Positions 1 to 53,860 are shown, counted from the stretch's first letter. The stretch is DNA of 64,000 bases from Iphione sp. A-MEVVRFRX5 (GCA_976226885.1 OZ320314.1:67208001-67272000); one strand, 5' to 3'. Program-made: numbers and translations. The notes: generated from the letters alone by a model not told the origin.

Positions 1-1506
1 CCCAAATTTCCAATAAACCGCTGTAAAAAGGTCCGATCCTCCTTGAGGAATGGAATGGAATCGAGATTTAGGTTTTAAAACATACAAGTAGAACTTTAAA
101 TGAGATAACAGAGGAATAAATGTGCGGAAAGAAGAGCCTTGGGTGGAAGAGATACATATAAAGAAAGAAATAGGGAGAAAAGAGAGAACGAGGTTGCAGA
201 TGTTGGGATGGCGCATGTGATCCCCTTGCCCTATCGTCAATGGATGGGGCGCCTGGTAAAGTGGGGATTACCCAACAAGATCCAGGCGCCCTTAACTGCT
301 TAAATCCACTGCAAATGGCCAGCCAACAAAGGCTCTGTCCCCTCGCGCTCAGCGTGTCTGATTTCTCCCTAATCGCGTTCAGACAGAGATACAAAGATAA
401 TTGCAAATACCTGCACCACTCTGCGCGAGAGGAATTTTGATGCAATACTTCATATTATAGACCGAAATAATTGATCTCTCCGTTTGTATGCGGCCGCGGG
501 CCAACGACCACCGGCTTCAATGGGAACGCCTCCGTAGAGATTGGCGGCCAAACGTATTGGATGTCGATGATTCTTGAAAGTGATGGCCGGCCTACAATGG
601 CAGCAATGCAATGCAGGCTTGTGAACACCAGGCAAACAACACTCGGCCAAAATAGTATGATTCAATTTCGGGCCGGACGCTAGAATGGTATTGGTTTTTT
701 CGCGATTGGGAAACAGTATGGGTACTTATATTAAACCATTTTTCTTTATGTACCAGCAAGAGAGCGGGCAAGACGCCTAGTCGTTTGGTATCACAAACCA
801 CTTTGGCCATCACATATATTTCAATTGCTGAGGCTCCTAGCTCAGCCGCTACTGACCGCTGCTGCGACAAGGTTGTCAGATTGTCTCCATTAATATTGAG
901 AGCTTTACGCAGACCCTATCCCGCGCACGCAGGCCTTACGGTTCCCTATCCGGAGCCTGGTCGCCATTATCCCTGTTCGACCTTGCCGCCCCCTCCACTC
1001 GGCCGAGTCAGCTTGCCCGCTGACCGCGAATGCAAGTCGGCCTGATCAAGGTCCCAGTAGGCAGCTAGCGACACCGGAGACACCCCACAAGCAGTATACA
1101 GGGGCCACGTATGACTCGTTCGCTATTGACTACACAGACTGATTCCGAACAGAGCAGTGTCTAGACGACATATCCTAGATGGTGATAGTTCATTGGCGGC
1201 AGGGGCGGATTTTACCTCTTGTTTTGACATCGATTTTATGGCCAGGTTCGGAGCTTTCGTGGGTCTAAAATATTGATCATAGCACGATTTTTACTGATCA
1301 TCAAATGTAGGCATCCGGTGACCAAGGCATCAGTTGGGCGCTTCACTCTTAACTACTCAGCTACGACCTCTTATCCCTGAGACATTACGAATGGATACCT
1401 AGGAGGACGCATATTGAAAATCTGCAACGCTATCTAACTTGTTGTTCAAGGGATGCCATAATTTGACCCTTTTTGCAGTGTGCACAGTAAGAGCGGTTTG
1501 TTGCAG

Positions 1507-1548
1507 GTCGCTATGTGTCGTCTACGAGTCATCTTGGCGACTGGGGTG
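1507..1548 (+). CDS. Possible 42-bp phase 1-1 micro-exon of the SUEL-CUB receptor gene ((G)RYVSSTSHLGDWG)
   Basis: Acceptor ttgttgcag ends at 1506 and donor GTG|gtaggc starts at 1549. A 76-bp intron would lead to the strong acceptor at 1624, and the phase is compatible. Alternative reading: unspliced ATG at 1513 (see findings). Confidence 0.35.
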
Positions 1549-1624
1549 GTAGGCATGCTGCCATTACTTACAGTCTCTACCATTACCCCCGCATCTGATC
1601 GATCCTCTTCTCCATTCCTCGCAG

Positions 1625-1915
1625 ATGAGGTGGTACACCAATACTGCCAGTGGGAGACCTTCAACGCTACCTGCCGCTCAGACGAGGTCATCATCGTCGA
1701 GTCGGCGCGCTACGGCCGAATGCAATTCGGGAGGTGTGTGCGCGAGGACCACGGCCACGTCGGCTGCTCGGCCGACGTTCTGTCTCATCTGGACCACAAG
1801 TGTTCGGGCCGCCATCAGTGCCTGCTGCACATCCCGGACGCCACACTGCAGAAGAACCACGCCTGCCCGAAAGAGATCATGTCCTACCTGGAGGCCGAAT
1901 ACAGCTGCATCAAGG
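1625..1915 (+). CDS. Receptor gene exon: SUEL (galactose/rhamnose-binding) lectin domain
   Basis: Acceptor tcctcttctccattcctcgcag|, donor AAG G|gtaggt. Translation YCQWETFNATCRSDEVIIVESARYGRMQFGRC...CSGRHQC...CPKEIMSYLEAEYSC has the SUEL Cys pattern and the A-x-YGR motif. Confidence 0.92.
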
Positions 1916-4900
1916 GTAGGTTCGCTTTCCTGATTATACCACTTGATCCGTGTGTGTTCTTTGATGCCTCTCCTAGGTTCCTTTAATGATCCACTCGGCG
2001 GGGTAACTATGTTTGAGGGAGGGGGGATTCGTGAGGTACCACCAATTATGGCTGGAACCACATCCGCCACTAAGTGGTCATGTTCTCCATGGCCAGGTAG
2101 ACGCAGAACGACCTATTACAGGGTCACAAATTACTGTAGGGAGCTTTGTATGGCATTTCTTTTTATGACGGAACATTGAACCAATCGAAAGCTACAACCA
2201 AAATTGATTAAACTGATTGAGATAGGGAGTTTTACTGGCATGCTAACACAAGCCACTTAAACGCTTATTCCGGAAAAATAAAAGGATTACATTTTAGGTT
2301 ATCATATATATATATCCCTACATATATTTTTATTTAAGCACAAAACTACTATGTATACGTATTTCTTGAGGCAGTTCAGCTCTCGGGAGCCTGTCTCAGA
2401 GAAAACAACTCTTCCCTTTACAAATCAGAGCATGATTATATGTATCCGTTTGTGTACAAAGTCAAGAGAATCCTTGTGTGCAAAACTCATATACGTTTCA
2501 ATATTAGAGGCAGGTATTTTCTCTCAGACGCGATTTCCTCCTCTTACAAACCAATTAAACATGCAGTAATTTAAGAAGATTATCCGTAAAACTGAGAGCT
2601 ACCGATATTAAAGCCCTGTGGCCCCTGCTATATCCGCGCCATCGGAAACTAACAAGGACACAAATTGGAATATATGACTAGAAAGCTTCACCACTCAGTA
2701 AATACATGGAATGAGGTGCACCACTGCTGATTAAAGGGGCGGGAGGATCATTTCAAGTGGGAAAGACGCTGACTGTTAAAAGGCAAATATTGGCTTCTTA
2801 AGATTATACCTGCTTGGCGATTGGAAACAGCGACGCTCACACTCTTTTCTTTAATCAGTTAGTGTCTGATGATAGCGAAAGCATTAGCTGCTTCCGCCCG
2901 CCCCCGACTTCACTCAGCTCAGTCATTCCCTGTCGCGCAAATACGGCCCCGGCCATAAAAAGCTTAATGTCACAGCTTACGTTTATCTTTAATTGCTCGA
3001 GCAATGTATTCAAAGCCCCTCCTCGAGGATGAATTGACACATAGATTATATTTGATTCGATTTAAAGCAAATGTCCGTGAAAATGAGCGATTCTCTCTTT
3101 CCCAAACGTATCAAATTATGTCATCCAGTTTGAGTGTAATTTTCTCCTGTCATTGTTTGCTATATGTGGTGTGGTGTGAACGTATTGTCGTTTGATGCTT
3201 AGATGAGTCCATGCTGTCCCGTGTAAACTCTTTCCCGAAGAAAACACAACCGGTGCCCGTCAGCGGCAAGGTGGATCCCATTTGATATGGCACTGGATCA
3301 AGCCAACAGACCTGGGGCCCTTCTCTTGCCTATGTAAACGTTGCATGTAGACAATGATTAGAGACACCAGCAGCACCCTCCGCGACAACTAGTCCCCAGG
3401 CCACCAGGGAGTTCGGGCTCTACGCCTGCCCGATAGCGGCCAGTCGAAAAGGCAGCTGCCGCTTTGTCTTCTCTCAAATTGTACGCTCCGTTCTGTGGGT
3501 GCAGTTCCAAGAATAACAGCCGGCGGGTAGAGGCAGGCCTTGCCATTGTTCGGCATGCTGTCTCTCACCTTTATTCGGGCCCGAGAACACATGCTGCCAA
3601 GCTTGACTAGGCTGTCTCATTTCAGTCGATGGAAACATTCTCGGCGCCCACATAAACTTCGGCTCTTTCCACGACATTAGTACCACGTCATGCGAACACA
3701 AAACAACACACCGTCCTAACAGCATATCATATGGTGTAAGAAATTCACATCATATTTAACCACAAAGGTGGTCTTATCTTTCTGGGCCTGTCGTTTAGAA
3801 GTATCTAACTGGTCTTATGGGAAACAGTTTTATTTTTTCGTGAGATTGATACAATGAAGTCAGGACCCTCCCTATCCGACTGATCTCGGGCCTCCAATCA
3901 GGTGGCGGGTGTGGTGTCAAGGACAACTACTTCCGATCAAATCAGACTTCAGGTAAGATGGAACGGCTGTCAGGTGCTGAACTACCAAAGCTAGCACGCC
4001 TTGCGCTACCACAGCGTCCTCTTTTTCATACAGTTGGGGTTTAGTGATGCTTACAAACATACGATAGTAACAGATATCTTATTATGTTCTCCCGGTGATA
4101 CGCGAGCAAAACATAAAAATGGATGGGACAATCGTCTGATAGGTGAATATCTTCATTCTACATATATTGCACACCAGAGCCAGTGCTCACTTGGATAACT
4201 CTAGCAAATAATACGAAATGATGTTTTTCCTCATTTCTACTATAAAATACTTTACGTCCACATCATATTTCCCATATTCCAAAAATCCAAAAAACGGTCA
4301 TGTCACATTGCGTAACGAAGCTTATTTTGCCATCAGTCATGACAAGCACCACGGAGGAGTCGGGGGATTCGGCTTTCCCTTTAGATATTGCCCTCATCGC
4401 CATGCATGACACTTATTGCTGCTCCGTAGGGGGAGTGTTTGTGGAGCTCAGTTCATATTTGTATACGCACTGTGACAAGACAAGTAGGGGACGGCCTCTC
4501 TCATCTGTGTAGATTGTGATTAATTCTCGATTCAATCCTTTATCATGACACAGGAATTCATTCGCTCTCTTATTTCCGGACGGCCGTCCGCGACTGCTTG
4601 TTCCGGCTCTTTCGGATGATTATATCAACATTCGGGTTAATGCTGCTCATCCATGGCGTATTTCTACAAACATGCCATCACGTTTGCCATTCTCGCCCCA
4701 TTCCAAACAGGATGACACAGTATATCATTCTCAGGTCATATAGAATTTATGAATGTTAATTTGAGGGCATACAAATAGCCAGAATATACGGGAAAGAAAT
4801 AGCGTATACTAGATGTATATTATCAGCCTGTGCAGGCCATCTAATTTATGTTTATAAGCGCGGTACGTAGGAGACAGTGGACGACCTGGTCAAACACAGG

Positions 4901-32057: not shown

Positions 32058-32345
32058 TGTTGGCGGAGGATTGTTACTTGTTGTTGGGCGGAGGGATGTT
32101 ACGTGATGTCGGAGGGTTTGTTCAGGAAAGGGGCGGAGGGACGGGAAGCTAGTCTGGATTTGGCGGAGGGCGGAGGGGCGGAGGTACCGCGGAGGGATTG
32201 CTTTGTGTATATAAGTGCGAGCGGCGGAGGTCGGAGTTCAGTTGCTGTTGTTGGATTGTCGTTGCATGTGCTCTTCAGAAATAAATTACAAGTCATCTTT
32301 ACTCGCGGAGTGGAACTTCTTTATTCATAATGGCGGAAGCTAACA
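32058..32345 (+). repeat. 5' LTR
   Basis: tgttggc...gctaaca (imperfect terminal inverted repeat). Identical by eye to 40797-41084 (offset 8,739; the ORF-track peptides from both copies are identical). Confidence 0.97.
32208..32285 (+). promoter_or_regulatory. LTR core promoter (TATA + Inr) and poly(A) signal
   Basis: TATATAAG at 32208, Inr-like TCAGTT at 32238-32243 (~32 nt downstream), AATAAA at 32280-32285. Several GGCGGAGG GC-box-like repeats lie upstream in U3. Confidence 0.65.
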
Positions 32346-33586
32346 TTGGTGGCAGCGGTGGGATCCGGCGCCGAGGAAGGGACCAGGAAACTCAGGACCC
32401 TTCATCTGCTAAGCACTCGGCGTCGGCCCGACGACCCATGGAAGGAGACGAACCCGAGAGAAGAGTAACTCGTAGTGGAGGAGGAGGGCGCCGAGTCGAC
32501 GACGTGGAGGAACAACAAGGAGGAAGGCCCGAGCGGCCGGCTCGGACCCCATCCCGCTTGTGGGGCGGCGGGGAGGGGACGGAGGCAGACGGCCCTCAGG
32601 GCCCGGCTGCGGAGGCAGCGGAGGCAATTCCCCCGCGGGAGCCCCAGGATGCGGTGGCACCCGTGGGAAGGTCCACAGCGGTGGACGGAACTTTCTCTGA
32701 GTCCAACTCAGATCCCGAACTGGATATTACCAGCGGTGAGGAGTCGGCGGAGGAGGAGGAGGAAGTCGCCGTGGTGGAGGTAGGTGGGGCTCAGCGAGGC
32801 AGGGTCAAGCCAGAGTCTTTTGACGGGACCCAGGATTGGGAGGACTACCTCCACCACTTCAACTTAGTGGCGATGGCAAATAAGTGGGGAAGCCGCGAGA
32901 AAGCAGTGCAGCTGGGAGTTTGCCTCCGGGGTCCGGCGCGGGCAGCCATGAGAGCAGCTAGAATAGATGTCAACGCACGGGCGGCATTCCGCACCCTAGT
33001 CAAGACCTTGGCCGCCAGATTCCAGTCCCCTGAGCAGGTTGACCTCTACAAGCAGAGACTCAAGTCTTACAGGCAGAAGGCAGGGGAGGACCTCCTCCAA
33101 TTAGCCGACGAAGTAGAGCGTTTAGTCCGGAGGGCTTATCCCGGGATCAAGGGCCATTGGGCGGAGGAGTTATGCCGAGAAAGTTTCGTGCAGGCGGTGA
33201 GGGACGAGCGCATCAGGCAGTGGATCGTCCAGAAGAGGGTGGAAGGATTCCGGGCCGCAGTCTCCGAGGCAGCCTTTGCAGAAGCTTACTACAAAAACCG
33301 GGAAGAGAGGGAAGGTAGGAAGAGCACAGGCAGCAGTGTCCGAGCAGGGTGCAATGCGTTGGTAACAGCGGAGGTGAACAAAGTGGCACCAGGGCCTACC
33401 CCCACAGCAACGGAGGAGCTACTCCTAAAGTTGGCCGAACGCATCGAAAGTCTGGAGGGGAAGTGGAAGACTTCTGGAGGTCAAAGGAAGACAGGATGTT
33501 TCCGTTGCGGGAAGGAGGGGCACTTTAGACGGGAGTGTCCAGAGAAACCTAAGCCGGCGGAAAACGACAAGCCGTCCTCCCAGTAG
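32330..33586 (+). CDS. gag: Retrotransposon Gag (418 aa)
   Basis: Gag-like motif PESFDGTQDWEDYLHHFNLVAMANKW...K...L...LRGPA; CCHC knuckle CFRCGKEGHFRREC at 33497-33538. Confidence 0.93.
   Translation: MAEANIGGSGGIRRRGRDQETQDPSSAKHSASARRPMEGDEPERRVTRSGGGGRRVDDVEEQQGGRPERPARTPSRLWGGGEGTEADGPQGPAAEAAEAIPPREPQDAVAPVGRSTAVDGTFSESNSDPELDITSGEESAEEEEEVAVVEVGGAQRGRVKPESFDGTQDWEDYLHHFNLVAMANKWGSREKAVQLGVCLRGPARAAMRAARIDVNARAAFRTLVKTLAARFQSPEQVDLYKQRLKSYRQKAGEDLLQLADEVERLVRRAYPGIKGHWAEELCRESFVQAVRDERIRQWIVQKRVEGFRAAVSEAAFAEAYYKNREEREGRKSTGSSVRAGCNALVTAEVNKVAPGPTPTATEELLLKLAERIESLEGKWKTSGGQRKTGCFRCGKEGHFRRECPEKPKPAENDKPSSQ
32347..32364 (+). promoter_or_regulatory. Primer-binding site, tRNA-Leu (AAG/TAG type)
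   Basis: TGGTGGCAGCGGTGGGAT, 1 nt after the LTR end, is complementary to the 3' end (...AUCCCACCGCUGCCA-CCA) of eukaryotic tRNA-Leu, as I recall that sequence. Confidence 0.85.
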
Positions 33587-36500
33587 GGGGAGAGGGAGAG
33601 ACGGCGGAGGAGCTCATCCCCAGGGTTGCGGTGGCAGAGACGAGGGGCGGAGGAGAAGATTATAGAACGGAAGACGAGATAAGCGGGGAGATGGACCGAA
33701 GATCAGGAACTCTCACGCTGACTGGAACGGTGAAGGGGCGGCCCCTGACGTGGTTGGTGGACACGGGGGCCTCCGCGACTATTATTGCCCCTCAGGTCGC
33801 GGAGGAGGTCGGGCTGCAAGTTCGACCGAAGCCAGGACAGAGGATCGTGGGCGCCGACGGCCGCCCCCTTCAATGCAAAGGTGAGACCGAGCTGGAGGTC
33901 CAGTTCCAAACGACGAAGTGGTTGATCAAGGCGTTAGTCGCGGAGGTGGAGTACGCCGCCATCCTGGGGATGGACGTCCTCCGCCAGCGGGGAGCGGTGG
34001 TGGACACGGCAAGGGGGGTCCTCCGCCTCCCTGCCGAGGATCCCCCTTCTGCCGTCGTACGGGTGGCCAGGGACGTGCAGGTAGCCGCCAGCGGGAAGAG
34101 TGTCATCCCAGTAATAGTGGAGGGAGCGGAGGCAGACCAATGGATGTTGGAACCTGAGAGGCGGTTCGAAGTGGAAAACGGCCTGCGGGTACCCCGATCG
34201 TTGCTGCCGGGAGGAGTCGAGGAGACGGCCGTCCTGTGCGTGAACACGTCAGCGGAGGGACGATGGTTACGAAGAGGAGCTACCGTGGGACGGGCGGAGG
34301 CTGCGGAGTCACCGGAGGCGACGAAGGGGACCAGGTCGGAGGACCCCAAGGCGGGAGGGGAAGTCGTCCAAGAATTAATGAAGACGGTGTCAGATGAATT
34401 TGCGGAGGACGAGAGGGAGGCCCTTCGCGGGGTGCTGTGGGACCACAGGAGGGTGTTCCAAACTAAAGAAGGAGGAATGGGACGGACGGACCTGATCCAG
34501 CACGAGATTCACACGGGGAATGCGGAGCCCGTCCGACAGCGATTCCGGCGGCTCCCTCCTCATAAGCGCAGGATTGTCGAAGAGGAAGTGCAGAAGATGG
34601 TAGCGCAAGGGGTGCTAGAACCTTCGCGGAGTCCGTGGGCCTCCCCCATTGTTCTGGTCAAGAAAAAGTCGGGAGAGTGGCGGTTCTGTATCGATTTTAG
34701 ACGGCTGAACGAGAAGACACGGAAGGACGCATACCCAATTCCCCGGGTCGACGACACCCTGGATGCCTTGGCTGGGGGGAAATATTTCTCCGTTATAGAT
34801 CTGGCCTCAGGATATTGGCAGGTGGAAGTCAAGGAAGAAGACCGGGAGAAGACCGCGGTGTGCACCCCGGGGGGCCTTTACCAATTTAAAGTCATGCCCT
34901 TCGGGTTATGCAATGCACCCTCGACGTTTGAGAGACTGATGGAGGTCGTGCTGTGTGGACTGATAGGTGAGGGGTGCCTCGTGTACCTCGACGACGTGAT
35001 CATCATGGGCTCGACCGTTCGACAGATGTGCAGCCGACTGGGGGAGGTGCTCGGTAGACTGGAGGAGGCGGGAATGCGAGTGAAACCGAAGAAGTGCCAG
35101 CTGCTGCGGAGGGAGGTGACCTATCTCGGACATGTGGTCTCCGCGGAGGGGGTTCGGCCAGACCCGGAGAAGGTGCAGGTAGTCGCGGAGTGGCCAGAGC
35201 CTGCCTCGGTGAAGGAAGTGCGAAGTTTCCTGGGACTCGCGTCCTACTACAGGTCCTTCATTCGTAACTTCGCGCGGAGGGCGGAGGCACTGCATCGGCT
35301 GCTGGAAAAAGGAAAGAAGTTCGAGTGGGGGGAAGCTCAACAGGCCTCGTTTGCTGATCTGCGGCAGTGTCTCGTTACGGCCCCCATCCTGGGCTTCCCG
35401 ACGTCCGAGGGTCAGCTTATTCTGGACACCGATGCCTCCGCGGATGGCCTGGGAGCGGTACTGTCCCAGCGGCAGGCAGAAGGGGAGCGAGTGCTGGCCT
35501 ACGCGAGTCGTACCCTCACCCGACCCGAAAAACGCTACTGTGTCACCAGGAAGGAGCTTCTGGCGGTGATCTTCGCCTTAAGGAAGTTTAAGACGTACGT
35601 GTCAGGAAGGAAGGTGGTTATCCGCACGGACCACGGCAGCCTCCGCTGGCTGATGCACTTCCGCGAGCCCGAGGGGCAGATGGCCCGCTGGTTAGAAGAA
35701 ATCTACTGTCGGGATGTGGACATCATCCATCGAGCAGGACGGGTGCATAACAATGCAGATGCTCTGTCGCGGCGACCGTGTCGACAATGTGGCCGTCCCG
35801 AAGGAGTGTCGGAGGAGGAGGACGATTGCGCGGAGGGGGTCTTCGCACTGCAAGTTCTACCGGTAGTGCAGCCCTCGGAGATAGCAGCAATAGTCGGCAA
35901 GGACGAGCGTCTGAGGGAAGTGTTACACCGCCTGGAGGAGAAGAACGGACCGCCGGAATGGGGGCCTGAAACCACGTGGGAGGAGAGGAGGCTTCTCATG
36001 GAATGGGCTAGGCTGTCAGCCGATCGCGGGCAGATAACCAGACGCTGGGCTGCGGAGGACGGACGGACTTGGCCCCAGACGTTCGTCCCGGAAGAGCTTC
36101 GGAAGACCTGTTGGGAGGAGGTGCATTCGGGGGCCTTCGGAGGACACCTCGGGCCAGTTAAGACAGCCGGCTTGCTACGCACGAAGTTTTTCTGGCCGGG
36201 ACTGAGTCGTGACGTGCAACTGTGGGGAGGAAGCTGCCCGGTGTGTCTAGAAAGAAGAAGCCCTCCGCGGCGGAAGCGCACACGACTACAACAACGACAG
36301 CCTGGAGGGCCGTGGGAATTAATAGCGGTGGACGTCTTAGGCCCCTTCCCCGAAACAGAGCGCCAGGCCAAGTACGTGTTGGTGGCATGCGACCATTTTA
36401 CTAAATGGGCGGAGGCGTTCCCCTTGCGCACACTGGCTGCGGAGGAAACTGCCTCAGTGCTGGTACGGGAGCTCATCTGCCGCTTTGGCCCTCCGCGGGT

Positions 36501-39500
36501 TATTCACAGTGATCAGGGAAGGAACTTCGAGGCGCGACTGATGGCGGAGGTATTACGGCTGTGCGGAGTAAAGAAAACAAGGACCACCCCCTATCACCCT
36601 CAGGCCGATGGACAGGTGGAAAGGTTCAACCGGACATTGCAGCACATGTTGGCTACCACGGTGCAGGAGCACCAGGGGGATTGGGACTTGCGACTCCCGT
36701 ACGTGACGGCAGCATACCGAGCTACACCCCATCGGACCACCGGCTACTCGCCGAACTTCCTCGCCCTCCATCGGGAAACCACGCTACCACTACAGCTGGC
36801 CTACGGAGGACCAGAGTCAGCGGAGGAGGGAACACCCTCCGAGTTTGCTGGGGAGCTTCGAGATCGGGTCCGCGCAGCGCATCGGCTGGCCTTCCAGCGA
36901 ATGAAGGAGGGGATCGTGCGGCAGAAGGACTGGTACAACCAAAAAGTGCGGCCGATCGCGTACAGTGTGGGGGAGGAGGTGTACGTGTTCCACCCCATCA
37001 AGAAACAAGGGCTATCGCCGAAGTTACAACGATTTTGGGGCGGCCCATGGATTGTCCAGGAAGCCTTGTCAGAAGCAGTCTATCGGGTGAAGAAAGGGCG
37101 GAGGGAGCGAGTCGTCCATGCTGACCTACTGAAGCCAGGGCCGAGGACCTCCGCGGAGAGGGCTGCGGGGAATTGCCCAGCGGAGGCGACCGTTACAGTA
37201 GCGAGCGCGCGGCGGGAAGTCTTAACCAATCGCTGTGAGGCGGAGGGAAGCCAGCGGTACCTCCGCGGGCGCACCGCTATAAAACCGCGCGAGAAGCCAT
37301 CGGTCGAGTCACTACGAATCCCACAACCAAGAAAGATGCCACGACGGAGGTCCAGCGATGACAAGCTTAAGTGCCATAAGTGCTCTTATGTGTGCGACAG
37401 AAAGGATAACCTGAAGCGCCACATGAAACTTCATGCTCAGTATGGGTACGCGTGGGGTTGCCCATCGCAGCGGTGCCCCGAGAAGGTGTTCCAACGGAAG
37501 GATGATCTACGGCGGCACTTGGAAACTAAACAACATGACGCGGAGGGGGGCGTGAAGCTGATGAGGAAGTCACGTGAACGGTATTACCAGTTCTTCAAGG
37601 TGGAGGGGTCCTCCGTGCTGAGAGGGAGGCCCGCCGACCCGTCCGTGGTGGAAGGAAGCCCGCGGCCTGCCCCCAAGAAGAAGCAGGCTCAGCAGGAGAG
37701 GGCGGAGGCGCCCTCCACGGAAAGCGAGGCTGAGGAGGGAGAGGAGTCGGCGGAGGTTGCAACCACGTCGGAGGAAGCGGAGGACGATCGAGACGACTGG
37801 GAGCCCCAGCCCTCCACCTCGACTGCGAGAAGCCCTCCACGGCCCCCGCCCAAGAAGAAAGAAAGTAAGCCTAAGAAGAGTGCGCGGCAGCAGCCCCCGG
37901 CCGCGACCGGCCACGACGACCCAACTCCGACCGATGAAACAGAGAAGTCCCCGCATTCGCTGTGCCGTGAGCTGAGGGATACGATTACGGGATTGGAAAC
38001 CAGGCATCCAGCCACGCCGGCCAGCTCCCCGGCCACGGTGGCCAGGTTGGTGGAGACAGCCGACAAGTTAGAACGGGCAATGCTCGGGTCCCCAGCGCCC
38101 GGGGTCGTTCTGCGGAGCAGCCCCCTCGCGAAACGGCGACTAGCGGAGGATCCGAAGAAGTCGGAGGGGGCCAAGCGAGGTCGGGGTAAGGGCCCCACCC
38201 TTTCTCCGTTGGTGGGTCGTTTAGGTGGGCAGCTCCCGAAGGTACCATCGCCGCTTCTGATGGAGGAGAGGACTCCGCCAGCCCTACCAGAGGAAGCGGC
38301 CTCCCCGAGACTCGTTACCCCGGAGGTCACCAAAGCGAAGACGGGGCGCATTTCTGCGCTATCGACACCCAGTATGCCGCCGACCCCGGAGAACCTTTCC
38401 GAGCTAGTCAAGCGCATGCAGGAAGAAGGGGGCCCCCGAGCCCCCCCCGCACGAGTGGACGAAGTGGCGGCGATGTTCAAGGCTATGTTCGGTGACTCCA
38501 TCGTCGTATCAGTCCCGGCCGGCGACGGGGCAGGGAGCACGGAGAAGATGAAGGGGAGTTCCTCGGAAGAAGAGCTTGCGGCGAAGCTTCCGGCCTCCGG
38601 GGATGACGAGGAGGCCGCCCCCGGCGACCAAGAACTTGCGGGACCCCCCGAGCTGCAGTACGTTGAAGTGGGTGGAATATTAGAAGTACATGAAGCCGTC
38701 ACGCCGGAGGCCCCTCCTCGAGTCCCGACTGAGCCCCCCCGGGGGGCTAACGACGCGCCCAGGGCGGGCCCGGACCCCAAGAAGATGGCTGCGGAGGTGC
38801 TCCAGTGGGAAGCACAACAGGCGATAGCGACGGTCCGGGCCATGGAACTCCGACAGGAAGAACAAGGAGAGGCAGCGGAGGGCAGACCACTAACCCGGCC
38901 TGGGCTCCCGGGAACGCCCTCGACCGTGGCGCGAAGGGCCACCACTCCTCCGGGGATCCCCTCGGGCACGGGGGAGAGCTCGCTGCCAACCCAGGGAGGG
39001 CCTCCGCTGACAGGCCCACCACGGCAAGGGGGGCCCCCGCCGCCGGGTACCTCGAGAGCCAAGCAACCGATGACCACCGAGGGACCGCAGGAAGAAGAGG
39101 GAACACCGCGGGACCAGCAGCAGATCCCCTCCCCGGCCCTACCACAGGGAAGGGAAGAGCATGACGGATCAGCCAGGCCGGCGCCCGCGGACCTTGAAGA
39201 AGCCAAGAAGGGGACGGAGGCCAGTACTCTTGGGCAGGAGCTCCCTCCGCGACCGGAGGGAGACGAACACGGGGGGGGTACCCGGCCGGTCTCTCCCCAC
39301 GACGGGCAGCGCGTAGACGGAAGCGAACCAGACCCTCTCCCCGGCGATCAGCGGGAAGACGGCTTGCAGGGCGACGACCAGGAGGCGGAGACCCCTCCGC
39401 ACCAACAGAGCGACGAAACCGGGGAAGGGACCAGGCCGGCCCCCCCTCAAGTCGAGCCACACGAGACCAGCGCGGGGGACAGTACCCGGGAACCCGACCC

Positions 39501-40785
39501 CTCCACGCCACCGCGAGTGGGCGAGCCTGAGGGGGAGAGCGAGCCGACTCGGCCTTCCGTCGAGGGGCGCGGAGGCAGCGCAGAGCCCCTTCCACGACGG
39601 AAGGGAGACGAACACGGGGAGGGGGCCAGGCCGGTCCCTCCCCACGTCGAGCGGCGCGGGACGGGCGCGGAGGGCGATATCCGCGAGGTCGAGCCTTCTC
39701 CGCGGCCGAGGACGGAAGAACCGGAGGAGGGGACCAGGCCGGTTCCCCCCCGCGGTGGGCCGCACGAAGGGGTTTCGTCGGGCACGACCCCGGAAAAAGG
39801 CCCCCCTCCACGACGGAGGGGGGATGAATATGGGGAGGAGATCAGGCCGGTCCCTCCCCACATCGAGCGGCGCTGGACTGACGCAGAGGGCGACACCGAG
39901 GAAGCCGGGCCTTCTCCAGTCGGGCGAGGGGAGGGGACCAGGCCGGTCCTTCCCCGTGGCGCGCCAGTCGAAGGAACCTCGGCGGGCACGGCCCTGGAGA
40001 TAGAGCCCCCTCCACGACCGGGGGGGGACGAACACGGGGAGGGAACCAGGCCGGTCCCTCCCCACACCGAGCGGCGTGGGATTGAGGCGGAGGGCGACAA
40101 CCGCGGGGTCAGGCCCTCCCCACGACGGAGGAAGGGCGGGCGGGGGGAGGAGACCAGGCCGGTCCCTCCCCGTGGCGGGCCGCACGAAGGGGCCTCACCG
40201 AGCACCACCCCGGGGAAAGAGCCCCCTCCACGACGGGGGGAGGACGAATACGGGGGGGGAGCCAGGCCGGTCCCTCCCCACAACGAGCGGCGACTGCCGA
40301 CAGCGGACTCCGACCCTCACTTGGCGGAGGGCGGAGGGGCGACAAACCAGACTGCCACGCCGCCTTCCTCGGGTCTGCACGGCCCGGAGAGGCGGCAACG
40401 GCGGAGGACGATATCACGCGAGGCGGCACGACGGCCGAGCGACGATCGGCAGGAGGCAGAGATATGGGCCCGTTGGGCAGCGGCACGACAGATCACGTGT
40501 GATGCCGACCCTCCGCAGGGGTGGTCGATAAGAACGAGCAAGGGCCGTAGCCGGTTGGCCCGCAGTGCTGACGGACTAGTCATAGGAGTACGACATGAAC
40601 TCTCCCTCGCCCGAGAGGCGGAGGCGGCTGACGCACAGACACTGTCCCGGTGGTTTGGTCGATCCACAGAGATCCCTGAGGAACTGAGCCTAGAAGAGTT
40701 TATTTTTGAACTTAGCGTAGATAAGGACTGTGCCGTTGTTGAAGCAGACGAAGTGTTTAGCGTTACTCGGGACGAGTTTGTCTAA
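33553..40785 (+). CDS. pol: Retrotransposon Pol (PR-RT-RNase H-IN) with ~1,200-aa in-frame C-terminal extension; frame is -1 relative to gag
   Basis: LVDTGAS (~33754), YLDD (34984-34995), DTDAS and RTDH (RNase H), H-x6-H...C-x2-C (36124-36246), DVLGP / SDQG / VERFNRTL (DDE). Frame is open from 33553 to TAA at 40783-40785. Confidence 0.95.
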   Translation, partial: AGGKRQAVLPVGGEGETAEELIPRVAVAETRGGGEDYRTEDEISGEMDRRSGTLTLTGTVKGRPLTWLVDTGASATIIAPQVAEEVGLQVRPKPGQRIVGADGRPLQCKGETELEVQFQTTKWLIKALVAEVEYAAILGMDVLRQRGAVVDTARGVLRLPAEDPPSAVVRVARDVQVAASGKSVIPVIVEGAEADQWMLEPERRFEVENGLRVPRSLLPGGVEETAVLCVNTSAEGRWLRRGATVGRAEAAESPEATKGTRSEDPKAGGEVVQELMKTVSDEFAEDEREALRGVLWDHRRVFQTKEGGMGRTDLIQHEIHTGNAEPVRQRFRRLPPHKRRIVEEEVQKMVAQGVLEPSRSPWASPIVLVKKKSGEWRFCIDFRRLNEKTRKDAYPIPRVDDTLDALAGGKYFSVIDLASGYWQVEVKEEDREKTAVCTPGGLYQFKVMPFGLCNAPSTFERLMEVVLCGLIGEGCLVYLDDVIIMGSTVRQMCSRLGEVLGRLEEAGMRVKPKKCQLLRREVTYLGHVVSAEGVRPDPEKVQVVAEWPEPASVKEVRSFLGLASYYRSFIRNFARRAEALHRLLEKGKKFEWGEAQQASFADLRQCLVTAPILGFPTSEGQLILDTDASADGLGAVLSQRQAEGERVLAYASRTLTRPEKRYCVTRKELLAVIFALRKFKTYVSGRKVVIRTDHGSLRWLMHFREPEGQMARWLEEIYCRDVDIIHRAGRVHNNADALSRRPCRQCGRPEGVSEEEDDCAEGVFALQVLPVVQPSEIAAIVGKDERLREVLHRLEEKNGPPEWGPETTWEERRLLMEWARLSADRGQITRRWAAEDGRTWPQTFVPEELRKTCWEEVHSGAFGGHLGPVKTAGLLRTKFFWPGLSRDVQLWGGSCPVCLERRSPPRRKRTRLQQRQPGGPWELIAVDVLGPFPETERQAKYVLVACDHFTKWAEAFPLRTLAAEETASVLVRELICRFGPPRVIHSDQGRNFEARLMAEVLRLCGVKKTRTTPYHPQADGQVERFNRTLQHMLATTVQEHQGDWDLRLPYVTAAYRATPHRTTGYSPNFLALHRETTLPLQLAYGGPESAEEGTPSEFAGELRDRVRAAHRLAFQRMKEGIVRQKDWYNQKVRPIAYSVGEEVYVFHPIKKQGLSPKLQRFWGGPWIVQEALSEAVYRVKKGRRERVVHADLLKPGPRTSAERAAGNCPAEATVTVASARREVLTNRCEAEGSQRYLRGRTAIKPREKPSVESLRIPQPRKMPRRRSSDDKLKCHKCSYVCDRKDNLKRHMKLHAQYGYAWGCPSQRCPEKVFQRKDDLRRHLETKQHDAEGGVKLMRKSRERYYQFFKVEGSSVLRGRPADPSVVEGSPRPAPKKKQAQQERAEAPSTESEAEEGEESAEVATTSEEAEDDRDDWEPQPSTSTARSPPRPPPKKKESKPKKSARQQPPAATGHDDPTPTDETEKSPHSLCRELRDTITGLETRHPATPASSPATVARLVETADKLERAMLGSPAPGVVLRSSPLAKRRLAEDPKKSEGAKRGRGKGPTLSPLVGRLGGQLPKVPSPLLMEERTPPALPEEAASPRLVTPEVTKAKTGRISALSTPSMPPTPENLSELVKRMQEEGGPRAPPARVDEVAAMFKAMFGDSIVVSVPAGDGAGSTEKMKGSSSEEELAAKLPASGDDEEAAPGDQELAGPPELQYVEVGGILEVHEAVTPEAPPRVPTEPPRGANDAPRAGPDPKKMAAEVLQWEAQQAIATVRAMELRQEEQGEAAEGRPLTRPGLPGTPSTVARRATTPPGIPSGTGESSLPTQGGPPLTGPPRQGGPPPPGTSRAKQPMTTEGPQEEEGTPRDQQQIPSPALPQGREEHDGSARPAPADLEEAKKGTEASTLGQELPPRPEGDEHGGGTRPVSPHDGQRVDGSEPDPLPGDQREDGLQGDDQEAETPPHQQSDETGEGTRPAPPQVEPHETSAGDSTREPDPSTPPRVGEPEGESEPTRPSVEGRGGSAEPLPRRKGDEHGEGARPVPPHVERRGTGAEGDIREVEPSPRPRTEEPEEGTRPVPPRGGPHEGVSSGTTPEKGPPPRRRGDEYGEEIRPVPPHIERRWTDAEGDTEEAGPSPVGRGEGTRPVLPRGAPVEGTSAGTALEIEPPPRPGGDEHGEGTRPVPPHTERRGIEAEGDNRGVRPSPRRRKGGRGEETRPVPPRGGPHEGASPSTTPGKEPPPRRGEDEYGGGARPVPPHNERRLPTADSDPHLAEGGGATNQTATPPSSGLHGPERRQRRRTISREAARRPSDDRQEAEIWARWAAARQITCDADPPQGWSIRTSKGRSRLARSADGLVIGVRHELSLAREAEAADAQTLSRWFGRSTEIPEELSLEEFIFELSVDKDCAVVEADEVFSVTRDEFV
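33559..33604 (+). promoter_or_regulatory. Putative -1 programmed ribosomal frameshift signal
   Basis: G_GAA_AAC in the gag frame at 33559-33565, 6-nt spacer, then stem ccgtcctccc (33572-33581) / gggagagacgg (33594-33604). It lies in the 34-nt gag/pol overlap. Confidence 0.65.
39589..40290 (+). repeat. Coding tandem repeat in the pol extension (units of 216/204/216 bp plus a partial unit)
   Basis: Anchors c(c/t)t-cca-cga at 39589, 39805, 40009 and 40225. Each unit reads PPRRxGDEHGEGxRPVPPHxERR...EGTRPVPPRGGPxEG. A diverged copy starts at 39244. Confidence 0.9.
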
Positions 40786-40796
40786 GAGGGGGGCAG
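40784..40796 (+). promoter_or_regulatory. Polypurine tract
   Basis: aagaggggggcag abuts the TG of the 3' LTR and overlaps the pol stop codon. Confidence 0.9.
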
Positions 40797-41084
40797 TGTT
40801 GGCGGAGGATTGTTACTTGTTGTTGGGCGGAGGGATGTTACGTGATGTCGGAGGGTTTGTTCAGGAAAGGGGCGGAGGGACGGGAAGCTAGTCTGGATTT
40901 GGCGGAGGGCGGAGGGGCGGAGGTACCGCGGAGGGATTGCTTTGTGTATATAAGTGCGAGCGGCGGAGGTCGGAGTTCAGTTGCTGTTGTTGGATTGTCG
41001 TTGCATGTGCTCTTCAGAAATAAATTACAAGTCATCTTTACTCGCGGAGTGGAACTTCTTTATTCATAATGGCGGAAGCTAACA
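40797..41084 (+). repeat. 3' LTR
   Basis: Direct repeat of 32058-32345, immediately preceded by the PPT. Confidence 0.97.
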
Positions 41085-52845: not shown

Positions 52846-52896
52846 TGAATGAATGACACAGACAACCAAATTGGGGGGTTTACAACTCAATTTGGG
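52842..52896 (-). repeat. Ngaro split direct repeat B1
   Basis: 55 bp (atattgaatgaatgacacagac...caatttggg), identical to 52639-52693. Confidence 0.92.
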
Positions 52897-53860
52897 CCAA
52901 CCCCCAAAGACAAAGAAAAATATTTATCAAGAGGTAACTTCTGTGTCACAGAAGGTTTAATGTAATTGAAAACCACATTGCTTTTCCAACCACCACGTTC
53001 TTTAATGGCTTGTACTGGTAGACCAACTCTTGCCATGTGGGTTGCCCCACCCCTATGTAATGAGTGAGAAGTAATCCTACCCTCTAACCCTCCTTCCTTC
53101 CTAAGTTTCTTTAAATAGGCTTGGAATACCTCATACTCTAAATAACATAGCTTACTACCAACTTTATAAGGAAAAATTGGATAATCACCCTCAACTCTGA
53201 TAAAAGAAAAAATCAGACGTAACCAGTGTACAGAACATAAAATCTTGTTAGAGCATGGAGAAACCACAATTTCTCTCAGCTGTTCCCCAAACTGATCTGT
53301 CTTAGAGAATCTAACATGAACTACAATATAATCAGCAACAATTTAAATATCACTCCTACGCAGACCCCTATTCCCAGTGAACTGCTTTTTCCTCAAGAGA
53401 CATCTAAAACCCTAAACAATAGAAACCCAAAACACCATATCAAGTGCTCCTTTGAACACCATATGATGATACATCTCCAACAAATCCTCCACAGTGACCC
53501 CTTTTGCGACCAGGCTAGGCAACCCATACAACCTTTTACAACCAGCAATCATCCACTTCAGGCAGTAATCTGAGCTATCAGATTACTATCAGAGCTATTG
53601 ATAAACCTCTGCATTTATGTTAAAAAACAACTCCACTGATATAGTTGGCAGTACTGTTAGGATTCAAAATAAAAGAGAGATACACGCAATACAAATGCAG
53701 CTGAGACTGACTACATGGATAAGGAGAACAAAGATAACGCTTACAGAAATGCAAATCCCTCTCTCCTGTCTTCTTCTCACTGATAGGGTGTTCTTGGAAA
53801 AGGCCGACCCCTTAAGGACCTTCATGCACCCCAACAGTGACTCAATTCCTCCTGAAAAAT
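52887..53860 (-). pseudogene. Tyrosine recombinase of the Ngaro element (disrupted)
   Basis: ITSHSLHRGGATHMARVG...IKERGGWKSNVVFNYI. The N-terminal SAFSKNT motif lies in another frame, and the catalytic Arg codon reads CAT (His). Confidence 0.85.

Follow-up and report, generated by a model that had tools for sequence, protein, structure and literature searches.

A zinc-finger gene fused in frame to pol in a Gypsy retrotransposon: a candidate self-targeting regulator with a predicted internal promoter

A third gene in a complete Gypsy element

The window, the whole 64,000-nt stretch of DNA that was analysed, comes from the 1.18 Gb genome of Iphione sp. and contains a complete, recent Gypsy retrotransposon at positions 32058-41084, whose two long terminal repeats (LTRs) are identical. 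LTRs, a primer binding site (PBS), a polypurine tract (PPT), gag and a pol gene in the order PR-RT-RH-INT place the element in Ty3/Gypsy. Its GC content is about 60-70%, and relatives of its Pol are present in arthropods, fish and a mollusc. The element belongs to family A; the related families are referred to as B to H. Its features are the following.

32058..32345, + strand: 5' LTR, 288 nt, TG...CA, with TATA, AATAAA and 9 GCGGAG words; identical to the 3' LTR
32347..32364, + strand: PBS TGGTGGCAGCGGTGGGAT; same PBS in families B-G
32330..33586, + strand: gag, with a CCHC knuckle; first ATG inside LTR U5
33559..33565, + strand: likely -1 frameshift site GGAAAAC, followed by a stem (putative function); GGGAAAC in C, D and E
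33553..37152, + strand: pol core PR-RT-RNase H-INT, with 30 GCGGAG words on both strands against 7.5 expected
37153..37335, + strand: INT-ORF3 linker, open frame with DNA-level constraint; predicted internal promoter
37226..37230, + strand: CCAAT box of the internal module, no variant common to at least 3 of 87 copies; found in A-E and H
37240..37266, + strand: GCGGAGG (37240) and its reverse complement CCTCCGC (37260), between CCAAT and TATA
37278..37284, + strand: TATA box TATAAAA, 58 nt upstream of the ORF3 ATG
37336..40785, + strand: ORF3, 1,149 aa, in frame with pol; its Met precedes the fingers in every family examined
37372..37434, + strand: finger 1, helix RKDNLKR, predicted target GAG (Pfam and finger alignment; code table in PMC5260015)
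37459..37536, + strand: finger 2, helix RKDDLRR, predicted target GCG, atypical spacing (finger alignment; code table in PMC5260015)
37648..37947, + strand: acidic tract (24% D+E) and basic NLS-like clusters, dN/dS 0.11-0.25; candidate activation region
37948..38832, + strand: short blocks conserved in the A/B alignment, in an S/T-P-rich region; dN/dS 0-0.18 (aa 1466-1660) and up to 0.46 (aa 1661-1760)
38833..40377, + strand: Pro/Gly/Glu/Arg tandem repeats of variable copy number, weak constraint (dN/dS 0.46-0.61)
40378..40782, + strand: terminal alpha/beta domain, homologous across A-E, dN/dS 0.03-0.10, best fold match Z 6.9
40784..40796, + strand: PPT, overlapping the ORF3 stop
40797..41084, + strand: 3' LTR, identical to the 5' LTR

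The first gag ATG lies within LTR U5 (32330-32345), as it likewise does in family B, so that gag would read through the PBS, which we take to be that of tRNA-Leu.

The frame from 33553 to 40785 is open over 2,410 aa. PR, RT, RNase H, INT and the INT p58 C-terminal domain lie within aa 57-1195 (Pfam), and the sole Pfam match beyond aa 1195 is a C2H2 finger at aa 1273-1294. The extension comprises aa 1200-2410, about 1,210 aa past the integrase, or 1,149 aa when counted from the ATG at 37336. An original prediction, made from the sequence alone, had described an in-frame extension of about 1,200 aa reaching to the PPT, with two C2H2 fingers, an acidic stretch, basic clusters, S/T-P sites, repeats and a folded terminal domain. 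All of these are present: the acidic tract has 24% D+E, 30 S/T-P sites fall in aa 1366-2275, and DNA repeats within the extension span 39156-40292. The prediction had also argued that the extension is not Env, and this was borne out by the absence of any hydrophobic segment in it (maximum 19-aa Kyte-Doolittle value 1.42) and of any Pfam match to an Env domain in ORF3. As predicted, the frame stops on the PPT, its TAA overlapping the first purines, but the further claim that no 3' UTR is left was overstated, as the stop is followed by U3/R of the 3' LTR, in which AATAAA lies at 41019.

The Pfam matches of ORF3 are to generic C2H2 fingers only, a lipase or exonuclease domain gave no match, and a chromodomain after the integrase is absent from the Pfam matches with E up to 1; a match to a described accessory ORF family, which the prediction had named as a refuting outcome, did not occur beyond generic C2H2 fingers. 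The N-terminal half of ORF3 found no relatives among longer proteins, and the atlas returned generic C2H2 clusters for it. AlphaFold models the terminal domain as a two-layer alpha/beta sandwich (pLDDT 76). A word-indexed search found no sequence relatives of this domain, a full HMM search returned one spurious repeat protein, and atlas scores reached 0.78. In the structural comparisons, no fold match was significant: the best was 4acv_A (Z 6.9, rmsd 3.2, 96 aligned), tied with phage tail terminators, and Foldseek gave no match at E 0.001 or better.

Copies and selection

The extension constitutes a third gene, ORF3, which is conserved and continues the pol frame. The 150 scored matches to the terminal domain divided into 104 of family A and 46 of family B, and a query from family B gave about 120 B matches. 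DNA similarity retrieved 39 family-A copies: the frame is unbroken over 2,408-2,437 aa in 15 of them, and 38 keep integrase and fingers in a single frame. Across four subfamily pairs, dN/dS was 0-0.07 in the fingers, 0.03-0.10 in the terminal domain, 0.03-0.06 in RT and 0.46-0.61 in the repeats. Purifying selection on the fingers and the terminal domain is as strong as on RT. In a set of 87 family-A copies, variants common to at least three copies had a nonsynonymous to synonymous ratio of 0.10-0.11 in INT, the fingers and the conserved middle, and private variants were near neutral (0.68-1.45). The original proposal of a conserved, selected extension is supported by these figures: the extension does not evolve neutrally, and it is not frameshifted in most copies.

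The prediction had also raised the question of whether other copies carry a stop between INT and the ATG at 37336. Scattered breaks do occur, as frameshifts or stops in the linker of 12 of the 87 family-A copies, with one CpG-type stop recurring in 3 copies, but no break is common to any family-A subfamily. In families C and D, all four INT-to-Met indels common to at least five copies are multiples of three, and two single-base insertions between INT and Met were each seen in two copies. Judged by this pattern of indels and breaks, the pol-ORF3 fusion looks maintained. The element would accordingly make two products, ORF3 by itself and ORF3 fused to Gag-Pol.

Related families and other lineages

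Queries from distant proteins found families C, D and E and a broken copy, H. In C, D and E, Pol is 52-54% identical to that of A, and these families share the fusion to pol, the pair of fingers and a terminal domain homologous to that of A. The full-length copies of B, C, D and E were chosen for long frames and so give no measure of intactness. The gap between stop and PPT is 39 nt in B and about 110-280 nt in C, D and E; the abutting stop is peculiar to A. At least five families carrying ORF3 are young and numerous. As a separate observation, C, D and E have, about 200 aa after the integrase, an extra conserved, basic and likely helical integrase tail (PPPRWYRR...RIP.GW), which A and B are without.

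In families F and G, with Pol about 40% identical, pol stops normally and the finger gene is a separate ORF behind an antisense ORF. The fingers of F align to those of A-E (HHalign 93%, E 2.8e-7). The original suggestion that a separate protein unit starts at the ATG at 37336 gains from this arrangement, and from the Met before the fingers in all families examined. The antisense ORF between pol and ORF3, about 260-350 aa long, was seen in five of six fetched F copies and in all three of G. Copies with pol 98% identical (F and F2) have ORF3 finger regions only about 50% identical, and one family F copy with identical LTRs is without ORF3. This pattern suggests that ORF3 is exchanged or lost as a unit.

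In other genomes, in 7 of the 120 Pol matches listed the frame continues into a tail of 234-412 aa that contains a Met and has two or three fingers, a count that is no frequency because the Pol query included the fingers. An RT tree (116 of 127 rows) placed the three finger-bearing groups in separate, well-supported clades on an unresolved backbone, which would fit a single origin or several. The finger profile found no relatives in viral contigs, and 248 pattern matches in metagenomes reduced to two loci, both unrelated finger genes.

A different tail was seen in another Gypsy Pol clade (P0026, P0031, P0058, P0099), which carries a macrodomain and a CCCH finger after the integrase and forms one branch (SH-aLRT 98). 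In P0099, the Pol tail matches PF01661 (E 1.5e-4) and PF18345 (E 5.8e-5).

The linker as a predicted internal promoter

The linker between INT and ORF3 comprises 61 codons, and its variation differs from that of the flanking coding regions. In the 87 family-A copies, the synonymous rate of shared variants was 0.42 in the linker compared to 0.66-1.15 elsewhere and to 0.87-1.15 in INT, the fingers and the middle block alone, and the nonsynonymous to synonymous ratio of shared variants was 0.75 compared to 0.10-0.11 in INT and the fingers. The private synonymous rate was normal (0.36 versus 0.38-0.43), and a test normalised by private variants was borderline (p 0.05). By these rates, the linker is constrained as DNA rather than as protein. 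Low synonymous change, with dN/dS of 0.6-1.3, is likewise seen in C and D over the module and on to the Met.

The linker contains a CCAAT/GCGGAG/TATA module that is kept in families A-E and in H, with Pol identity to A of 52-73%. The distance from the start of CCAAT to the start of GCGGAG is 14 nt in all six, and the distance from the module to the Met varies from 55 to 465 nt. The first ATG 3' of the TATA box is the finger Met in five of the six; H, the broken copy, has two intervening ATGs. No CCAAT/TATA module precedes the ORF3s of family F. The peptide RYLRGRTAIKP, originally read as a motif of pol ends, has to be reinterpreted, as it is mostly the read-out of the TATA box ACCGCTATAAAA.

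We also looked for a spliced route to ORF3. By eye, no clear splice acceptor precedes the ORF3 ATG. Twenty candidate loci, picked as being without INT or fingers, were mapped to the element beside 44 other family-A copies, and none of the deletions in either set joins the leader to the ORF3 Met. ORF3 is likely also transcribed from the internal CCAAT/TATA promoter predicted here.

Two zinc fingers and a repeated word

C2H2 fingers read DNA antiparallel. With helix RSDNLVR paired with GAG and RSDDLVR with GCG in the pertinent entries of a published design table (PMC5260015), RKDNLKR would read GAG and RKDDLRR GCG, which in antiparallel order gives GCG-GAG as the predicted target. The two ORF3 fingers are predicted to bind GCGGAG, a match that is no blind prediction, as the repeated word was noticed before the code was applied, and that, given the G-rich bias, picks one word out of 16 of the form GNG-GNG. 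The spacing is atypical in finger 2 and in the finger linker, so the code may not apply.

GCGGAG is concentrated in the element. The LTR contains 9 copies in A and 10 in B compared to 0.3 expected, a number reached in none of 500 shuffles. Measured against synonymous shuffles, no hexamer is more over-represented in the pol of A and B (30 versus 7.5 in A, 26 versus 6.9 in B), where the reverse complement of GCGGAG is likewise enriched, and 82 sites of the word fall in the 9.0-kb element compared to 15 in the remaining 55 kb of the window. Among the 16 GNG-GNG words, GCGGAG is the commonest in all six LTRs from elements with such helices, whereas the LTRs of F and G, which have other helices, are without it. 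Clusters in C, D, E and H occur only at the LTR and the internal module, and the pol core of C, D and E shows no enrichment (4, 1 and 2 versus about 3.8). Synonymous positions were changed at 17 of 45 sites inside the word and at 563 of 863 outside it (p 0.0003).

The fingers vary in step with the word. The base-contact residues, Asn+3 and Arg+6 in finger 1 and Asp+3 and Arg+6 in finger 2, are invariant in all nine finger rows, in which the only other invariant columns are the zinc ligands and three structural residues. An Asp at position +2 of a finger influences the next base of the target. The seventh base is G or T at 19 of 19 LTR sites in A and B, where finger 1 has Asp+2, and at 7 of 16 sites in the LTRs of C, D, E and H, which are without it. 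Finger 2 is a different one in family F, and there TCGGAG is the word in excess (12 versus 1.5 in pol), with 44 sites along the element. As A and B form one clade and C, D and E another, this co-variation rests on one or two independent changes.

Two other uses of the word were considered. Selection of insertion sites by GCGGAG was rejected: ATAT was found on the 5' side in 36 of 49 family A and B copies, the 4-bp duplication matches in 40 of the 49 (ATAT/TTAT in the window copy), and flanking DNA has 0.17 sites per kb compared to 0.27 in the rest of the window. This ATAT preference and the unenriched flanks indicate that the fingers do not choose insertion sites by GCGGAG. DNA demethylation or protection from CpG decay by the word was unsupported, as the decay is a mild 1.4-fold and the word shows no significant reduction in it (83 of 696 versus 744 of 5425 outside, p 0.22).

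Proposed function of ORF3 and alternatives

The predicted binding and the GCGGAG clusters in the element's own LTR and internal promoter suggest that ORF3 would likely act as a self-targeting transactivator. We consider it probable that ORF3 is a transactivator of this kind, comparable to Tas or VANC (see below) and made from a subgenomic RNA, with the Pol-fused form kept too. Basal transcription of ORF3 would come from host CCAAT/TATA factors, and ORF3 acting on its own promoter would then create a positive loop. ORF3 would also bind the LTR cluster, where its acidic region could turn on genomic RNA. In A, B and F, in which sites coat the whole element, the protein may also hold off silencing. 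In the weakest step, fusion to Pol might bring ORF3 into particles, and a new insertion would then be active at once. Among the three roles that the original prediction had offered, transcriptional self-regulation is the best supported, now with the addition of a predicted internal promoter and a predicted target word.

The Pol fusion could instead be the working form. The fingers would then bind GCGGAG in cDNA ends and the NLS-rich tail would aid import or integration, with the promoter-like module being secondary. The fusion does look kept, given the lack of a subfamily-wide linker break in A and the indels in threes common to at least five copies in C and D, and the LTRs are the densest clusters of sites. 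However, the stretch from TATA to Met in C and D combines dN/dS near 1 with low synonymous change, as a promoter and leader would, and F and G have ORF3 as an ORF of its own. Insertions moreover prefer ATAT and lie in word-poor flanks (0.17 versus 0.27 per kb), and we regard this account as unlikely.

Transactivation has its mirror image in repression, as all binding evidence is blind to sign and the sites overlap both core promoters. As a repressor, ORF3 would bind GCGGAG and compete with a host GC-box activator or recruit silencing, thereby limiting copy number. The acidic tract adjoining the fingers argues against this, as do the youth and large numbers of at least five ORF3-bearing families, and selection for a trans-acting repressor would presumably be harder to sustain in a selfish element. 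Self-repression is quite unlikely on these grounds.

The word itself might belong to the host. GCGGAG resembles the Sp/KLF GC box, and with this likeness and the CGGAG core that persists in F despite its different finger 2, the clusters could also be accounted for by a host factor. Agreement with the code would then be coincidental, as the atypical finger spacing would allow, and the fingers would bind RNA, protein or host genes. Coincidence has to account for an exact six-base match with invariant contact residues, for a seventh base that tracks Asp+2, and for the absence of the word from the LTRs of F and G with their other helices, which leaves this explanation with a similarly small probability. 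A frame without function, left open by the GC richness of the element (about 60-70%) and by recent amplification, is almost certainly the wrong explanation: the repeats are weakly constrained (dN/dS 0.46-0.61), but the fingers and terminal domain are at 0-0.1, homology is kept among families with Pol 52-54% identical and the domain is foldable. For the non-repeat parts, the idea is refuted by the selection figures.

Relation to known systems

LTR retrotransposons are usually held to depend on host factors for transcription. Complex retroviruses (Tas) and plant DNA transposons (VANC) are already known to encode sequence-specific regulators of their own, and both resemble the self-targeting transactivation proposed for ORF3. 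As described in the available text of PMC8670036, the foamy-virus protein Tas (Bel1) binds DNA and acts on response elements in the LTR and the internal promoter. Tas is encoded by an accessory gene near the 3' end that is expressed from this internal promoter, an arrangement that the conserved CCAAT/TATA module, with its DNA-level constraint, predicts for ORF3 too. In the ORF3 elements, GCGGAG is concentrated at the corresponding two sites, the LTR and the internal module. Unlike the foamy viruses, the element here is a Gypsy without env, its gene lies in the pol frame and encodes two C2H2 fingers, and the activity of ORF3 is a predicted one; Pfam finds no Tas-family match in ORF3. By analogy, the ORF3 system is one that would work like Tas outside the Spumaretroviral membership, with Gypsy pol, no env and C2H2 fingers.

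VANC, from Arabidopsis VANDAL elements, is an anti-silencing protein whose target is a short word that has built up in the cognate element; from family to family the word changes together with the protein, which also has variable regions with tandem peptide repeats (available text of PMC5735166 and PMC6719617). ORF3 elements likewise amass a short word that co-varies with the protein, F using TCGGAG, although the independent contrasts are few. VANDALs are, however, plant DNA transposons, and as far as the sources go, VANC words lie in non-coding tandem repeats, whereas many words in the ORF3 elements are coding. ORF3 has no homology to VANC, its host element being a retrotransposon and its only matches C2H2 fingers, and the term 'zinc' is absent from the available text of PMC5735166.

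Two LTR retrotransposon systems share a 3' gene with its own internal promoter. In the portions consulted, Oikopleura Tor3b and Tor4b have an env gene with its own internal promoter, located inside pol in Tor3b (PMC4402516), and maize Grande has gene23, a 3' gene with an internal promoter (PMC7264820) that by the title of a paper cited there encodes a nuclear protein. The Tor gene, by these accounts, is a membrane glycoprotein and the Grande gene is antisense, which sets both apart from ORF3, and neither account describes fingers or a self-recognised word in the text available. Chromoviruses and others have an extra domain fused after the integrase GPY/F module (PMC2774666, in part), and bdelloid rotifer Gypsy elements carry non-Env ORF3s (PMC5408684, in part). 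ORF3 differs from such appendages and from the bdelloid ORF3s by its length of more than 1,100 aa, its own Met and its promoter module. A retrotransposon finger factor with a self-recognised word was not found in the available text of PMC13524379, PMC8220671, PMC13269885, PMC12859917 or PMC2774666. Literature searches, with a scope outside Repbase/Dfam, most subscription journals and supplements, returned no description of such a gene.

Somewhat more doubtful than the transactivator reading itself, and put forward tentatively, is the possibility that animal Gypsy elements have control like that of complex retroviruses: a finger factor, an internal promoter and a co-evolving word in LTR, promoter and codons, with the factor also carried on Gag-Pol, by which new insertions would arrive together with their activator. 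The finger tails in two other Gypsy lineages suggest that such control may be widespread and undescribed. As the target is readable from the helices and present in the element itself, escape of an animal transposon from silencing becomes directly testable, and families A/B, C/D/E and F offer natural specificity variants. Where C2H2 fingers are usually pictured as a host weapon against transposons, ORF3 would reverse the roles, and it may explain the recent amplification of several families of the clade in one genome.

Apart from the element, the window holds a SUEL rhamnose/galactose-lectin exon at 1462-1986 (+ strand) and a tyrosine-recombinase fragment at 52887-53342 (- strand).
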